Positions 31,834-64,000 of a stretch of 64,000 nucleotides of DNA are shown here, in pieces. Made by a program: the position numbers and the translations under genes. Origin of the DNA: a virus; IMG/VR virus record IMGVR_UViG_3300025154_000073, positions 1 through 64,000 of that record. One strand, given 5' to 3'. Position 1 is the first letter of the stretch. Each line of letters starts with the position of its first letter. The notes beneath the pieces were generated by a model. The model had not been told where the DNA came from. It made no database searches and worked only from the letters and a program-made list of their open reading frames with translations.

Positions 31834-32550
31834 TTAACTCTCATAATCAGTCTCCTTTTTGAAATTTAGCGGTCTGTCTATTTTATTTTCAATTATATAT
31901 TTATCATACGCAATTGCAGCATCAATTTCGTAAACATACGACCCCACATAACAGCGATTAGATTTTCCCTTTAACCTAAATCTACAATACCACCTATTAT
32001 GTTTTTCTGAGAAGAATATTCCGAAGAATTTTGATGACGCACTAGAAACTTTCTTTCCGAATCGGGGGTTGTTTTTCCACCCTTGCGCCAACTTCATTTT
32101 TTCTCTTGAGGCGTCTGCTATTTCTTCTCTATTTCTATTTGCTTCTGATATTTTATTGATGGCCTCTTTTGTGTGGTGTTTTCCATACATGGGATTTTTT
32201 TCTTTAGCCTGTGAACAAGACATTTTTGCCTTAGTTTCTTCTGTGCATCTCCCATGCGCTCCGGCATCTTTTTTGTTGTATCCAAATAATTTGTTTTTAG
32301 TGTGGTAAAAATTAATCCAATAATCCTCTCTGTCAACAAGCATTTCTACTGAACATACGTCAATAACTTCAAACAAGAAATTATATTCTCCGTATTTGTT
32401 CCACGCGTTTTGTAGGTGCGCGTTGTGTGCCGTGCCGTTTTTCAATAAAAAAATATGGTCTTTCCATCTATGCTTTATGTCAATAGATTGACCTATGTAG
32501 TTTTTTCCGCTTATTTTATTCATAATACGATAGATTCCGCATATAGGCAT
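31834..32550 (-). CDS. GIY-YIG homing endonuclease (NUMOD3 + AP2-like)
   Basis: GIY..I.N...YIGQS, NPMYGKHH, SSKFFG...AA.AYD. Confidence 0.85.
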   Translation of the reverse strand: MPICGIYRIMNKISGKNYIGQSIDIKHRWKDHIFLLKNGTAHNAHLQNAWNKYGEYNFLFEVIDVCSVEMLVDREDYWINFYHTKNKLFGYNKKDAGAHGRCTEETKAKMSCSQAKEKNPMYGKHHTKEAINKISEANRNREEIADASREKMKLAQGWKNNPRFGKKVSSASSKFFGIFFSEKHNRWYCRFRLKGKSNRCYVGSYVYEIDAAIAYDKYIIENKIDRPLNFKKETDYES

Positions 32551-33086
32551 TGTATATACTTCAAACAAACCACCGCCAATCTGCATTCCGAACTTGTCAC
32601 AGTTGCAGGAGCGCGGCAGACGGGCGGTGGTTTATCTCGGAATAAAAAATCTCCTGTGAAACTGTGACGAATTGATTATACCACAATCACGGATCAGCGG
32701 AAGGGTCATAAATACTCATCGCCCCTCCATCTCTTCAAGCAGGGAGACAGCTTGCAAATCCATGACTAACTGTTCGTCATAGTCGGGCTGGTTGTCCTGA
32801 CAAAAAACTTTCCAAACGCCCGTTTTACCCAGACCGTGAGTGTCGGAAAATAGGGATTCTGGCGGAGGACAGAAAGCATAACCTTTTTCGAGGAAACAGA
32901 AGTCAATTTCCGCACCGAACTCGGTCTCCACAGGGTAGGCATGACCTACGCACGCGCCGTGTTCGAGTTTGACCATTTGCTCGTGTTCAATGCACCAGAC
33001 GAACTCTGGAGCGTCTCGCCTCACGGAAGATACAAGGCGGTGTACGTGCGTTCCTAGTGAAGTTTTCATAATGTTCTCCTTTTCTC

Positions 33087-34617: not shown

Positions 34618-34926
34618 CTAAGTGTTTGACAATATGGATTTGGCTTTTAATAGAATTCTTGCAAAGTGCCTGTGGGAGGCGTATCTTTCTGGATTTGCTA
34701 TAATCCAGGAGTTTTCTCCATCCATTTCATCAAATACTTCCTTTATAAATTCTGTCAATGCGGCGATGACGGTGGCACTATCGTCTTCCTTCTCGAATGT
34801 TGTTGTTTTCCATTCCTGCTTGCGCCCTATCGGGGCTTCGCGTCCACCGACGGGGCATTGGTTGGTTTCAAAGTGATGTAAACCGTATTCGCCGCCACAG
34901 TTTTTACATTTATCGTATGTGTTCAT
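34618..34926 (-). CDS. Small zinc-binding hypothetical protein
   Basis: CKNCG...H....CP; GGAG RBS. Confidence 0.55.
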   Translation of the reverse strand: MNTYDKCKNCGGEYGLHHFETNQCPVGGREAPIGRKQEWKTTTFEKEDDSATVIAALTEFIKEVFDEMDGENSWIIANPERYASHRHFARILLKAKSILSNT

Positions 34927-35038
34927 TTTAGCTCCTATTGTTTTACGTTAGTTTGTACGTGAGCTGCGACACAACCTTAATCATAAGATTTGCTTAAGTG
35001 TTGCGTTAAGCCTTGTTTCCTTTACTAGAATTCTCGGA

Positions 35039-35128
35039 CGGTTCATCCCCACGTGTGTGGGGAATACCATGGCAGGAATATAGTCACTGTCTCTTGACAC
35101 GGTTCATCCCCACGTGTGTGGGGAATAC
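35039..35128 (-). CRISPR. Mini-CRISPR array, type I-E-like, 2 repeats / 1 spacer, no cas genes
   Basis: Two identical 29-bp repeats GTATTCCCCACACACGTGGGGATGAACCG (35039-35067, 35100-35128) with a 32-bp spacer. Confidence 0.9.
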
Positions 35129-35403
35129 TTTTACAGTACGGATAAAGACCATCCCTATGACCTTTGCTTTTGTGAAATTCCGAATAGTCTTTATCTTGTA
35201 AACACTTTTTGCATTTTTTCATTATCTATTTGCTCCAATAGAAAACTCCACAAGTCAAAGCCGTTGATTGTTCAGGTCTACGGGGACGAGTGGAGTAATT
35301 CTTATTGTAACATAACGACTTTTCCATAGACCTGAACAGTTGGAGTATATCATACTTTGAACAAAAGGGACGACGACAGATGCAACAGAACCTAATCTAA
35401 CTC

Positions 35404-45323: not shown

Positions 45324-45777
45324 AGAGGGTAGTATGCCTAAATACGATCTAATTGAAGCGGAGATACAATGGTGCGAGACACATCGCAATCCTGATGATC
45401 CTGAGCAAACGATCTACCAAGATGGTTTTGTTGCTGGTTTATATCAGGCACTTTGGCTAATGAAAAGTAGACAAACAAACGAAAATTACATTCCGAAAGA
45501 TAAAGATGCCGTTATTCACCCAGATTGGTATTCTCTCGCGCTTTTGAAGCGCATTGAATTAACCAATTCGCAAATTGATACTCTGTTGAAAAATGAGTTG
45601 TCAACGAGAAGCAGAAAAAAAGTGTTGCAATATTTTAGGGCGCGCAAAAAGCCCCGCAAAGGAAATTAAATGAAAAAATTCAAAGCCGTGCCAGTGGCAC
45701 ACAGTAAAGATGATTTGGGCGGGTACAGGCGGGCATGCGGGGTGGTGTGAATTGGAAAAGTATTGGGTGGCACTTCG

Positions 45778-45799
45778 CCAGTAACGCAAACCGTTCTAC
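45778..45799 (+). mobile_element. attC-like right arm (L'/R')
   Basis: CCAGTAACGCAAACC-GTTCTAC. Confidence 0.6.
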
Positions 45800-47868: not shown

Positions 47869-49434
47869 CTGCCGAATCTTAGCAGTAGAAAACCTCTTAG
47901 TCAGGATGAGTGGAAGAAACTCTACCTGATCTCAAAAGAACTGGAAAGCAGGGGGGAGAAAGTACCTGAACAATCCATTGAACAATTCAAGGATAAAAAA
48001 CGAAAAAAGTGGCCTGTTGACCCCAACGGGTATTTTGTGCGTAATGACGGAAAGTCGTACAGCCCCTCAGAGAACCACAAGAAATTTGTGGAAAGTACCG
48101 CCAGATTTTCAGCCCTGTACGGCCCGAGAGGTTGTGGAAAATCCGGTGGTGGAGGACAGAAGACTCTTAGAAAAATAATGCAGGGGGAAGATGGCGCGGT
48201 GATGAACCCCGACATGGAGAATTTTAAGCTATCAACGTGGCCTGAGTTGAAGGCGTGGATACCCTGGAAGATGGTAGTCCCTACACAGAAACACAGGTCG
48301 AGACCTGAGTGGGAACCGACCAAACCGTTTACAATGGTGTTTATAAATGGGGCAAGAGTCTACTGCAAGGGACTCAAAGACCCCGACTCTGCGCGCGGCC
48401 CTAATATCAACTACCTTTGGTATGACGAAGCGGGGCGCGATAAAACAGGACAGGGTTGGAAGATTGCCGTGTCCTCTGTCCGTGTTGGAAACAATCCTCA
48501 AGCGTTTGCAACTTTCACGCCAAAGACTTCCGAACACTGGACGACAAAGTTTTTTGTTAAGCAAGAAATCCCCGAAGATGTCAAACAACAGTTTGCGGAA
48601 GCGTTGGGAGATGATAAAATTCTCATAGAGTCTTTTCACGCAACGCGCGAGGACAACAAGGCGAATCTTGACCCCGCTTTCTATGCCTCCATCCTTGCAA
48701 GTAATCCTTCTGGATGGCTCAAGGCTCAAGAGTACGATGGAGAAGTTGCAGATGAAGGCGGTCAGATTGGTTATCGAAGTTGGTTTGATGGCAGAATCAT
48801 CACTACGTTACCAACCAGAATTATAAAAAAGATACGCGCATGGGATACTGCCGCCAGTGAGAAGAAGGTCGCCAAAGACGACCCAGACGAATCGGTTGGT
48901 TCATTACTTATAAAATTTCTTCCAAAGGACAACCCTGAATGGATGGAACTCTACGGACACTTATTGCAAGAGGGGCAGGAAAAACAACCACATTTTATTT
49001 TAGAAAATCAAGTCGCTGGTTTTTGGGCGGCGGAAAGACTATTTGAAGTCATCAAGAATACTGCTAGATATGATGGAGTCTATGTTCCCGTTTACATTGA
49101 CCAAGACCCAGGCGGGGCAGGCAAGAACCAGGTCGCTCTACTTGCCGCGTCTTTCAAGGACTCGAAGAACCCAGAACTCCATGCTCATCAGGTTCTTGAA
49201 GTGGATGTTAGAAAAGTTGGAGATAGAGTCCTCGCCGCGAACAATCACTGGTTTGGTGCGGCGTCAGAAGGTAGGATGTGGTTGATGAAAAGCAGTTGGA
49301 ACGACGGATTCTTGGGTCAACTTGATGGATTTACGATGATTGGGCATGACGACAAAATCACCTCGGTCACTTCTGGAATGTATGTTTTGAACCCCGCGAA
49401 AAAATGGGGCAAACTCCCATTTGTCACATTATGA
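47869..49434 (+). CDS. terL: Terminase large subunit (probable CTG start)
   Basis: Walker A GPRGCGKS, Walker B LWYDEA, nuclease WDTA / HDD; frame open back to CTG at 47869 with GGAG RBS. Confidence 0.88.
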   Translation: MPNLSSRKPLSQDEWKKLYLISKELESRGEKVPEQSIEQFKDKKRKKWPVDPNGYFVRNDGKSYSPSENHKKFVESTARFSALYGPRGCGKSGGGGQKTLRKIMQGEDGAVMNPDMENFKLSTWPELKAWIPWKMVVPTQKHRSRPEWEPTKPFTMVFINGARVYCKGLKDPDSARGPNINYLWYDEAGRDKTGQGWKIAVSSVRVGNNPQAFATFTPKTSEHWTTKFFVKQEIPEDVKQQFAEALGDDKILIESFHATREDNKANLDPAFYASILASNPSGWLKAQEYDGEVADEGGQIGYRSWFDGRIITTLPTRIIKKIRAWDTAASEKKVAKDDPDESVGSLLIKFLPKDNPEWMELYGHLLQEGQEKQPHFILENQVAGFWAAERLFEVIKNTARYDGVYVPVYIDQDPGGAGKNQVALLAASFKDSKNPELHAHQVLEVDVRKVGDRVLAANNHWFGAASEGRMWLMKSSWNDGFLGQLDGFTMIGHDDKITSVTSGMYVLNPAKKWGKLPFVTL

Positions 49435-61712: not shown

Positions 61713-62588
61713 ATGAATCTTGTTATCGGAGCTAACGGTCTCGTAGGGTCTGCCCTAATGAGACACCTGTCTGACGCGGTGGGAACATTCCACACAAACA
61801 AAGACAATCTGTGTCCAGATAGAAAATATGAGTATTTGGACGTAACAGACTCTAAGAATATTGCAGATGTATTCAAGAAGCACAAACCCAAAAAGGTGTT
61901 TCTTGCCGCCGCCAATCCCCATGTGGACGCCTGCGAAAAGCCCAATACGGATATTGTGAATGTTGACGGGCTGAAACAGGTCATCTTAATTTCTGCAATC
62001 TTTCGCTCGCAACTTATATTCTTTTCTTCGTCCTATGTATTTGATGGAAAGAGTCAGACAGCCTACAAGCCAACCGATGACCCCTATCCCATCAATAGAT
62101 ATGGCAGGCAGAAGGAAATCATAGAGAACTGCATATTTGAGTTTAGTGATGAAGTGCAATATTTGATTATTCGCACCGTAGGAGTATTTGGAGAAGAAGG
62201 AAAGCCCAAGAATTTTGTCTCCCAAATAATCAAAGCGGTGGCTGAAAACAAAAAGGTACACGTCCCCACCGACCAGACCATGAATCCTGTGTATGCAATG
62301 GACTTGGCGAAAGTCGTCATTCACTTGTCCAATAGATATATGGACGAGGTGTTTCACGTCGCTGGCGATAAGTGTATGAGCAAGTACGACTTCGCTATAA
62401 AAATAGCCTATAAACTAGGATGCACCAAGCCACACGATCTTATTGTTGGTGTAAAGTCTGAGGACATGAAACAGGTTGCCAACCGTCCTTCCAATGGGTG
62501 TTTGGATTGCCGAACTCTGGAGACAAGAGCGATGAATGTTCCAAACTTTGAAAAAGGACTGGCGAAATTTCTGGAAGGTAAAAAATGA
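61713..62588 (+). CDS. rmlD: dTDP-4-dehydrorhamnose reductase-like protein
   Basis: IGANGLVG, VDACE, FSSSYVFDG, PIN.YG..K, DQ...P....DLA, RP. Confidence 0.85.
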   Translation: MNLVIGANGLVGSALMRHLSDAVGTFHTNKDNLCPDRKYEYLDVTDSKNIADVFKKHKPKKVFLAAANPHVDACEKPNTDIVNVDGLKQVILISAIFRSQLIFFSSSYVFDGKSQTAYKPTDDPYPINRYGRQKEIIENCIFEFSDEVQYLIIRTVGVFGEEGKPKNFVSQIIKAVAENKKVHVPTDQTMNPVYAMDLAKVVIHLSNRYMDEVFHVAGDKCMSKYDFAIKIAYKLGCTKPHDLIVGVKSEDMKQVANRPSNGCLDCRTLETRAMNVPNFEKGLAKFLEGKK

Positions 62589-62778
62589 AATCAATAATTA
62601 CGCAGATTACGTTTCCACATATCTCTACCCATTGTTCTTATCTCCAATCGGAAGAAAGCCTGAAATATGTGAGATGTTATATATTAGAACATAAATGGAT
62701 AACAGATGATGGAAAACCTCCCTATGATGGAGAATACTGTTTGTGCGGAAAGACGACATATTATAGTGGGTAGTCTAA

Positions 62779-64000
62779 TTGAATCTTGACGAGGATAAGA
62801 AGAACCTCAAAGAGCAGATACTCGCTCTTTCATCAATCTACACAAAGAAAAGACTACAAACTAAATTCATAAAAGGCGAGACTTACATCCCTGCTTCTGG
62901 CTCTCTGCTGGAAGAGGAAGAGGTTAATAACCTTATTGAGGTCGCTCTGAGTGGGTGGGTAACAGAGGGTGAATATTCAAAGGCGTTTTCAAAGGGTCTT
63001 AGAGAATATCTCAATTCAAGATTTTGCACATTATGTAATTCAGGCTCAAGTGCAAACCTTCTGGCAATCACAGCAACTACGCAAAAAGAGTTTGGAAGAA
63101 AAGCCGCCAAAGAAGGGGATGAGTTTATTACCGCCGCAGTTGGATTTCCAACGACAGTTTCAGGTCTTGTTCAAAATGGAATAGTCCCCGTATTTGTTGA
63201 CATAAATCCCGTATCTCTTACTCCAGACGTTGAACTCATAGAACAGGCAGTAGTTGAGGGAAAAACGAAGGGAATCATCCTTGCTCACGCTTTAGGGAGT
63301 CCGTATGATGTGGATTCAATTCGAGACATTTGCGATGAGTATGGGATATGGCTAATCGAGGACGTTTGTGATGCCGTAGGAAGTCGGTATAACGGAGAAC
63401 TGGTAGGGACTCAAGGCTCAATGGCTACCATGTCCTTCTTTCCCGCACACCACATCAATACGGGTCAGGGAGGTGCAATCTTCACAAATGATGGACTTGT
63501 CAAAAAAGTTTTAGACAGTCTACACGCCTGGGGACGGAGTTGTTATTGCCTTCCTGGACAAGACAATACTTGCGGAAAGAGATTTGGTTATTGTATTGGT
63601 AAAGACATTGAGTATGACCACAAGTATGTTTTTGACAGAATAGGTTACAATCTTCAAATCACAGACATGCAATCAGCTATTGGGCTAGCTCAACTTGATA
63701 AGATAGCGAGATATGAAGAAATCCGAAAACACAACTGGCATAGGCTGAAAGAGGTATTCTCGGAGTACAAGAAATTCTTTATTCTTCCCCAACCCATCAA
63801 GGGTGCAGACCCCTCTTGGTTTGGTTTTCACGTTACCGTAAAAGGAACTTCGTTTACCCGCAGACAAATAACCGAATACTTGGAAAGCAAGAAGATTGGC
63901 ACAAGGCTTTTGTTTGGCGGAAATCTTCTTCAACAGCCCGCTTTCAAACACATTCCCCATAAAGTATTTGGAACTCTGGAAGAAAGCAATCTTATAACCT
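62779..64000 (+). CDS. rfbH: RfbH/DdhC-like CDP-4-keto-6-deoxyglucose 3-dehydratase (PLP-dependent), truncated by window end
   Basis: Own translation: YIPASG, NSGSSANL, GFPTTV, LIED.CDA.GS, SFFPAHHI..G.GG, YDHKY....IGYNL. Confidence 0.85.
   Translation, partial: MNLDEDKKNLKEQILALSSIYTKKRLQTKFIKGETYIPASGSLLEEEEVNNLIEVALSGWVTEGEYSKAFSKGLREYLNSRFCTLCNSGSSANLLAITATTQKEFGRKAAKEGDEFITAAVGFPTTVSGLVQNGIVPVFVDINPVSLTPDVELIEQAVVEGKTKGIILAHALGSPYDVDSIRDICDEYGIWLIEDVCDAVGSRYNGELVGTQGSMATMSFFPAHHINTGQGGAIFTNDGLVKKVLDSLHAWGRSCYCLPGQDNTCGKRFGYCIGKDIEYDHKYVFDRIGYNLQITDMQSAIGLAQLDKIARYEEIRKHNWHRLKEVFSEYKKFFILPQPIKGADPSWFGFHVTVKGTSFTRRQITEYLESKKIGTRLLFGGNLLQQPAFKHIPHKVFGTLEESNLIT

Follow-up and report, generated by a model that had tools for sequence, protein, structure and literature searches.

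Leaderless CRISPR mini-arrays of phages and prophages have been surveyed in a study, probably that of Faure et al. 2019. As summarized in PMC6858448 and PMC11656645, which cite the survey as ref. 58 and ref. 12, respectively, such arrays carry one or two spacers between host-identical repeats, come without cas genes and without a leader, and do not target their carrier. According to the same two summaries, their spacers are thought to be gained by recombination with host arrays, and most of them hit related viruses, often in genes adjacent to the array. The mini-arrays of the Sulfolobales viruses SPV1 and SPV2 are described as archaeal and intergenic, with a host-like, promoter-bearing leader and demonstrated reciprocal targets (Medvedeva et al. 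2019, PMC6858448). Racrs, in turn, are reported as solitary repeat units without a spacer, the I-E examples of which inhibit an I-E system (Camara-Wilpert et al. 2023, PMC10651486). Finally, a preprint describes Cracr arrays, in which degenerate psi-repeats flank psi-spacers of 21-24 nt that are partly complementary to the casA promoter or CreR, and reports that phage I-E crRNA-like RNAs of this kind silence the casA promoter (Liu et al., bioRxiv 10.1101/2024.10.29.618823).

Here, we analysed a window of 64,000 nucleotides of viral DNA, namely bases 1-64000 of a 73,044-bp IMG/VR virus record that is linear and estimated to be 81% complete. Judged by its features, the repeat-spacer unit in this window is a further case of the virus-borne mini-array class: like the published leaderless examples, as far as these are summarized in the cited papers, it sits on a viral genome, has one spacer and host-identical repeats, is accompanied by no detectable Cas family, lacks a leader and shows no self-target. 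It differs from them in that our searches found no target, in its probable Anaerolineae hosts and groundwater origin, and in lying inside a truncated open reading frame (ORF). The distinctive points of the case are its probable Chloroflexota host, its groundwater setting and its position inside a destroyed endonuclease gene. The array and its immediate surroundings comprise the following features:

35100-35128, minus strand: repeat 1 (the 5' repeat in sense orientation), GTATTCCCCACACACGTGGGGATGAACCG, 29 nt, identical to the repeats of 31 prokaryote loci
35068-35099, minus strand: spacer, TGTCAAGAGACAGTGACTATATTCCTGCCATG (minus sense), 32 nt
35039-35067, minus strand: repeat 2, 29 nt, same sequence as repeat 1
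35047-35107, minus strand: predicted 61-nt mature crRNA, consisting of an 8-nt 5' handle (AUGAACCG), the 32-nt spacer and a 21-nt 3' hairpin handle
35007-35038, minus strand: the 32 nt past repeat 2 (candidate second guide), phage flank without a following repeat
34992-35011, minus strand: small hairpin GCTTAA-N8-TTAAGC with a 6-bp stem and an 8-nt loop, in the centroid fold, absent from the MFE fold

Compared with the SPV1 and SPV2 arrays as described, the phage array is bacterial and of type I-E, leaderless, located within an ORF and without a target in our searches. It resembles a Racr in being a phage-encoded mimic of a host repeat without cas genes, but consists of two full repeats 32 nt apart, and the Racr study (PMC10651486) counts a pair of full repeats less than 100 bp from each other as an array and leaves it out; the defining feature of a Racr, a single repeat with neither spacer nor partner, is absent. 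With Cracrs, which according to the preprint are processed by host Cas proteins, it shares the layout of a phage-borne I-E repeat-spacer unit, yet its repeats are canonical, its spacer measures 32 nt, and it has no above-chance match to five host cas loci.

On the plus strand, the repeats appear as identical 29-mers (CGGTTCATCCCCACGTGTGTGGGGAATAC) at 35039-35067 and 35100-35128, with 0 mismatches between them and 32 nt (35068-35099) in between; in a repeat search the copies come out at 30 nt, as they share one flanking base. Two sites in the window match the repeat at ≤3 mismatches, whereas none of 100 dinucleotide shuffles contained at least two, and the whole 73,044-bp record holds no additional repeat-like site at ≤9 mismatches. 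Each copy folds into a hairpin with a 7-bp stem and a 4-nt loop (MFE fold). E. coli Cas6e cleaves at the 3' base of the repeat hairpin, a rule which we used to place the ends of the predicted crRNA. The sense strand of the phage array was assigned as minus because the host repeat reads GTATTCC...AACCG in the direction of the cas operon, and it is the strand on which the flanking phage genes lie. Rfam returned no matches in the window at gathering thresholds, and no convincing sigma-70-type promoter was seen near the array. The basic observations of the preliminary description, which was made from the sequence alone, were confirmed here: two 29-nt repeats free of mismatches around a 32-nt spacer, the sequences given for the spacer and for the 32 nt past the distal repeat, a GCTTAA/TTAAGC hairpin, located at 34992-35011, and a TTGACA hexamer on one strand of the spacer, the plus strand, at 35094-35099.

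The exact 29-mer was found in 31 prokaryote loci of a species-representative genome collection, 19 of which are Chloroflexota by record title and 12 of which belong to other phyla. The 19 titles, two names of which were checked, include Chloroflexi, Chloroflexia, Anaerolineae-type taxa, Villigracilaceae and Brevefilum, and are mostly Anaerolineae. In five of five genomes tested, the arrays have a Cas6e gene (PF08798; E 7e-42 to 6e-55, exceeding the curated cut-off) no more than a few kb away. In these hosts, a seven-ORF operon is followed by the array, with the repeats pointing in the direction of the cas operon; Cas6e alone was assigned by profile, the other cas names being inferred from gene order and size. 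Start-to-start spacing in host arrays with this repeat is 61-62 nt. Repeats of type I-E carry a 3' ...AACCG handle motif, and the phage unit has this ending, a 29-nt repeat, an internal palindrome that forms a hairpin, and a 32-nt spacer, within the range of 32-33 nt. As a Cas6e gene adjoins it in all five genomes tested, the repeat is genuine type I-E, so that the original typing stands and the suggested comparison with host arrays did return hosts with a matching repeat, mainly Anaerolineae.

By record title, arrays with the exact repeat are spread over at least eight phylum-level groups (L003-L033), among them Chloroflexota, Acidobacteriota, Deinococcota, Chthonomonadaceae, Synergistaceae, Desulfovibrionaceae/deltaproteobacteria, Spirochaetia and others. 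Such a distribution implies a wide horizontal spread of this I-E variant and limits host calls based on the repeat. Anaerolineae (Chloroflexota) are the probable hosts, an assignment that is tentative because the repeat occurs across phyla, including the 12 non-Chloroflexota loci.

A complementary line of evidence came from comparing 619 spacers of the 31 host loci with the phage. One of them, L019_sp38 of Anaerolineales bacterium UBA2395, matches with an E value of 5e-9 per query:

45768-45799, plus strand: partial protospacer of L019_sp38, 27/32 identical, 24 contiguous

The phage lineage therefore meets Anaerolineales I-E systems. All five mismatches of this protospacer fall in the first eight, PAM-proximal positions, a clustering that would arise by chance in about 3 of 10,000 cases if mismatches were random (an arithmetic estimate); the 5' flank is GGG, and the site lies in an intergenic region between divergent gene blocks. 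The mismatch pattern looks like seed/PAM escape or a mosaic junction. Three other host-spacer matches at E ≤0.003 extend over 15-16 nt and are expected by chance. L019_sp24 was considered as a further phage-targeting spacer and rejected as a chance match, given its 16-nt exact match and 18/32 identities overall. In run X10, the repeat occurs in five separate 31-mers at depths of 6-22.5, compared to about 4 for the phage flanks, and thus arrays with this repeat live in the same groundwater.

Chromosomal I-E arrays of Anaerolineae metagenome-assembled genomes (MAGs; for example L019/L053, L008/L054 and L018/L055) share with the phage unit the 29-nt repeat, the hairpin and spacers of 32-33 nt. 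They contain tens to more than 100 repeats, a T-rich leader end and an adjacent cas operon, none of which the phage array has. A common, conserved T-rich end directly before the first repeat is present in 10 of 19 extracted host leaders, all from Chloroflexota records; upstream of phage repeat 1, a host-type leader end is absent when compared with the conserved end of these ten leaders. The phage unit thus lacks the host-like leader of a canonical leader-driven array, and the sequence immediately upstream of it is coding.

This coding sequence is a small Zn-ribbon ORF, which begins 3' of an inverted repeat:

35130-35222, minus strand: Zn-ribbon endonuclease-type ORF, native N-terminal 31 codons, identified by profile matches
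35269-35338, no strand assigned: inverted repeat with 15-nt arms (35269-35283 and 35324-35338) that are 93% complementary and 40 nt apart, from the repeat search

The whole ORF runs from 35222 down to 35043, starts with ATG about 10 nt after a GGAG, and encodes 59 amino acids, its frame continuing across repeat 1 and the spacer into repeat 2. Residues 1-33 align with positions 63-95 of the 271-position profile phrog_1035, endonuclease VII (E 5.9e-7), and match seven other families as well; the match of the Zn-ribbon module to these endonuclease VII/HNH-type families ends where repeat 1 starts. A full C..C...DG...C..C knuckle is present in the homologues of six out of six other viral loci; in the phage, repeat 1 occupies the position of the fourth Cys. 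No nuclease domain is found downstream of the Zn-ribbon part, and the next gene, starting at 34926, is a gene in its own right, a homologue of which occurs in a distant phage. Because the profile match stops at repeat 1, the fourth Cys is replaced and no nuclease domain follows, the array sits in and truncates a homing-type Zn-ribbon endonuclease gene. The inverted repeat, which separates the Zn-ribbon ORF from the 254-aa gene upstream of it and lacks a U-run after it, could be a regulatory or protein-binding site.

Searching the 59-aa ORF with phmmer against 1.84 billion representatives yielded 898 matches at E ≤0.001. Most of the best 150 of these 898 look like translated CRISPR arrays, a judgement made because they show 3-9 matched stretches over residues 30-59. 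No intact Zn-ribbon allele was among the eight matches read from these best 150 of 898, and no longer protein sharing words with the 59-aa ORF was found. A search of 90% clusters returned two forms only, the 59-aa ORF and P0008, a 68-aa protein on a single 1,251-bp ENA contig. P0008 shows no difference from the 59-aa ORF over the Zn-ribbon part and repeat 1, then continues with 11 differing residues, corresponding to a 33-nt spacer, followed by repeat 2 in another frame. It could represent a second allele, with spacer turnover at the same locus as in SPV1 and SPV2. Alternatively, the array there may be longer, or the contig may be a chimera that was misassembled across the repeat, both of which we considered because its last residues do not fit the phage flank and host arrays co-occur in the samples.

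The carrier is a phage, as the preliminary description had held: it encodes a large terminase (48037-49434), a GH25 lysin, a single-stranded DNA-binding protein (SSB), ERF and homing endonucleases, together with an RNA ligase and a DUF3560/primase-like protein. Record GC is 43.6% and even along the length (0.42-0.46). The endonuclease genes comprise two GIY-YIG homing endonucleases and one HNH_3 endonuclease, two phage ORFs match PADLOC homing-endonuclease profiles, and the phage is hence rich in selfish endonuclease genes. A homing endonuclease with GIY-YIG and NUMOD3 domains and a weak AP2 match is located at 31834-32586 on the minus strand, 2.5 kb from the array. The claim that the phage carries no cas genes also held, with 0 Cas families among the 86 ORFs of at least 90 aa screened with PADLOC profiles, in a record estimated to be 81% complete; the sole Cas-like match among these ORFs was a marginal CARF8 (E 8.9e-4). 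Tyrosine or serine recombinases, integrases and resolvases were not found, and since no such recombinase was detected the phage may be lytic. Overall, it is a tailed groundwater phage that is probably lytic.

Relatives of the carrier are scarce. No INPHARED phage matches 33000-37500 by megablast, and the neighbouring 254-aa gene has no relative in IMG/VR. The 102-aa neighbour gene has one distant relative at 54% amino acid identity on a 50.9-kb contig (L058/G406), and this only relative found has neither the array nor the Zn-ribbon gene. The 102-aa gene lies downstream of the array (34618-34926, minus strand); its counterpart on the metagenome contig L034 (1666-1989) encodes 107 aa, the two copies differing by an indel and the L034 product having a different C-terminal part, and the L058 homologue measures 143 aa. 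At the right end of the record lies an 11-kb block of sugar and polysaccharide genes (window 61713-64000 and L040 2779-11994, that is record 62779-71994) encoding an RmlD-like reductase, a DegT aminotransferase, five glycosyltransferases and a B12-radical SAM enzyme, with the HNH_3 endonuclease amid them. Its GC content equals that of the remainder of the record, and the block represents either a module for glycan modification that belongs to the phage or a piece of host DNA bordering a prophage.

The array recurs in independent assemblies. Contig L034 (2,909 bp) is 99.2% identical over 2,878 bp with the array unchanged, and run X7, which is not among the flagged possible sources of the record, yielded a 321-nt Logan contig that covers 34967-35287 with 0 differences. 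The 59-aa ORF reading through the array is recorded on six contigs (JGI/IMG, Logan and ENA). Altogether, the stretch is present in 16 runs of eight studies, labelled groundwater (12), soil (3) and sediment (1); six of the 16 runs are possible sources of the record, and contigs were compared for four of the 16. Contigs of runs X9 and X12 end at the array, stretches without coverage being uninformative. All phage copies found, from several samples and years, carry the array, which is real phage DNA and not an assembly artefact. Artificial joining of phage and host array reads, to which the co-occurrence of host arrays with the same repeat and the breaking of the X9 and X12 contigs at the array could point, has a practically negligible probability, as phage sequence lies on both sides of the array in the 73-kb record, in L034 and in the 321-nt X7 contig (0 differences), and the ORF is found on six contigs from three sources.

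The exact repeat has 0 matches in other IMG/VR contigs, and a pattern for the repeat family occurs on only nine IMG/VR contigs. Two other IMG/VR contigs, of 23.8 and 23.4 kb, carry a solitary copy with 1-2 mismatches (L060 1832-1860 and L061 4081-4109) and no partner repeat within eight mismatches, which, judged by arrangement, is the layout of RNA anti-CRISPR candidates. Two-repeat units of the family are located on viral contigs L049 (2540-2630) and L065 (near its end), and a five-repeat array lies in the middle of a 38.7-kb viral record (L043 9938-10212, the same as L062). None of the spacers on L049, L065 and L043 match the phage studied here.

We searched widely for a target of the spacer. 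In agreement with the preliminary description, which had seen no self-match, neither 32-mer matches the phage elsewhere at ≤9 mismatches. The database comparison it proposed was run with the spacer on viral, metagenome, phage, plasmid and host-class collections, and a protospacer was found in none of them. IMG/VR gave 0 matches for the spacer with N at every sixth base and 0 matches for two overlapping spacer patterns (positions 1-23 and 9-32); among JGI metagenome contigs the spacer matches only L034, the copy of the same phage. Blastn returned no spacer match in INPHARED phages and one chance match in plasmids (E 9, Yersinia lptE). None of 401 genomes of the host class (the class of G001) matches at ≤3 mismatches, none of the 31 host loci with the repeat contains the spacer, and the best match in the related viral loci L041-L052 is 19/32, below all 100 shuffles. 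This absence of a target is weak evidence, because exact-pattern scans of collections miss diverged protospacers.

Prompted by the preprint on casA silencing, we carried out a Cracr-type comparison of the spacer with five complete host cas loci. PAM-proximal runs reached at most 10, in a match located inside a host array, and the best total was 22/32, with the seed mismatched, while 30 shuffled spacers gave seed runs of 6-13 and totals of 19-21. Matches to these five loci are therefore at chance level, within or barely above the shuffles. The idea that the spacer targets a promoter and acts by repression, which had been drawn from the single TTGACA, thus gained no footing: no target was found, and the matches to the five host cas loci do not exceed chance. 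Nor did the suggestion of a second guide fare well. No third repeat follows the 32 nt past repeat 2, the best downstream candidate having 13/29 identities, and therefore a canonical Cas6e-capped crRNA cannot form from it; its best matches to the five host cas loci are no better than those of the spacer, the second 32-mer itself not having been shuffled. A second guide is not impossible, because 3'-extended I-E species have been seen where the terminal repeat is defective, as reported in the Cracr preprint (Liu et al., bioRxiv 10.1101/2024.10.29.618823).

Taken together, we lean, tentatively and at slightly less than an even chance, towards a leaderless, virus-borne I-E mini-array from which host Cas6e and Cascade would make one crRNA against a rival element, in analogy to the described class. 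Given its sense orientation, the array would be carried by read-through on the mRNA of the minus-strand gene block. Cleavage of both repeat hairpins by host Cas6e would then free a single canonical 61-nt crRNA, with which host Cascade and Cas3 would attack DNA that matches the spacer. By analogy with viral mini-arrays, the likeliest target would be an as yet unsequenced competitor, either another phage or some other mobile element. Recombination with a host array, and not leader-dependent adaptation, is the probable route by which the array entered the phage, and its arrival would have destroyed the Zn-ribbon endonuclease-type gene. In favour of such a guide, we count the perfect, host-identical repeats with the expected hairpins, the sense orientation, the lack of Cas families and of a self-target, the L019_sp38 match, the co-occurring arrays with this repeat, the conserved locus, the class known from the literature and the possible allele P0008. 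Against it stand the missing protospacer, the lack of a convincing promoter nearby and of a host-type leader, the position inside an ORF, unlike the intergenic SPV1 and SPV2 arrays, the possibility that P0008 is a chimera, and the 12 loci of other phyla that share the repeat. Moreover, if the phage is lytic, little time would be left for crRNA loading.

The lytic appearance of the phage and the lack of a cleavage target in any search would fit an RNA anti-CRISPR, in which the abundant phage transcript, with its two perfect repeats, either decoys Cas6e and Cascade subunits like a Racr or, as a regulatory crRNA-like RNA, redirects Cascade and so silences host immunity genes like a Cracr; the spacer sequence would matter little for the decoy and partly for the regulator. 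An I-E array with this very repeat carries a spacer against the lineage (L019_sp38), solitary copies of the same repeat family on L060 and L061 suggest that repeat mimicry recurs, and phage-borne I-E Racrs and I-E Cracr arrays have been demonstrated experimentally according to their reports (PMC10651486; bioRxiv 10.1101/2024.10.29.618823). As described there, however, Racrs are solitary repeats, and the published finder discards paired repeats as arrays; Cracrs have spacers of 21-24 nt, degenerate repeats and at least nine PAM-proximal matches to a cas promoter, in contrast to the canonical repeats and full-length spacer found here, and the spacer scored within or barely above 30 shuffles against the five host cas loci. 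We regard an RNA anti-CRISPR as rather unlikely. On the unlikely side, too, is an inert scar, that is a host repeat-spacer-repeat captured by illegitimate or short-homology recombination, which knocked out a dispensable homing-type endonuclease gene and has since been a neutral passenger. Such an origin would suit an array that lies inside and truncates an ORF, has no leader, identifiable promoter or target, is missing from the only relative found (L058/G406), carries a repeat absent in exact form from other IMG/VR contigs, and resides in a phage encoding ERF and SSB. Several observations speak for more than a scar, although none is decisive: both repeats are still perfect and equal the host consensus, their orientation agrees with the surrounding transcription, the array amounts to exactly one processable crRNA module, and it is fixed in all copies found across several samples and years.

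Recombination also features in a further possibility, in which the repeats serve as homology to integrate into host arrays, disrupt them or exchange spacers with them, and no guide is made. The ERF and SSB genes, the possible alternative-spacer allele P0008 and the view, summarized in the mini-array literature, that leaderless phage arrays gain spacers by recombination are consistent with it. Yet integrated copies were not found, the host loci with the repeat carry neither the phage spacer nor its flanks, and homologies of 29 bp are short, which makes this possibility very improbable. A variant of the guide account is that the array replaced the Zn-ribbon gene and is an active, evolving weapon at a homing-endonuclease locus, its spacer aimed at sibling phages with an intact gene and swapped by recombination with host arrays through the repeats. 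The mini-arrays published for phages often strike neighbouring genes in close relatives, an analogy that we count in its favour; still, we find it quite doubtful. In the frame of the ORF, a Cys codon opens the spacer, ten codons past the point where the knuckle loses its fourth Cys. We also considered that the spacer might be the phage's own sequence bracketed by inserted repeats, and rejected this, as crossover or break repair between spacer and protospacer would not give flanking repeats on both sides. If sibling exclusion were true, with P0008 as the second allele, it would amount to CRISPR-guided exclusion between selfish-gene alleles in Chloroflexota phages.

Virus-borne mini-arrays matter because they show that a phage can put the CRISPR machinery of its host to use while encoding none of it itself. 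To our knowledge, well-documented examples are few and mostly come from cultivated hosts, and we know of almost no phages of Anaerolineae. As it stands, the array described here is an ordinary example of a described class. It extends the mini-array pattern to an uncultivated groundwater phage with likely Anaerolineae hosts, a repeat-based host link that is backed by the L019_sp38 spacer match, and provides an example of a mini-array that has come to lie within a gene. Should a target or an anti-CRISPR effect be demonstrated, the case would tell whether leaderless single-spacer units are weapons or decoys.
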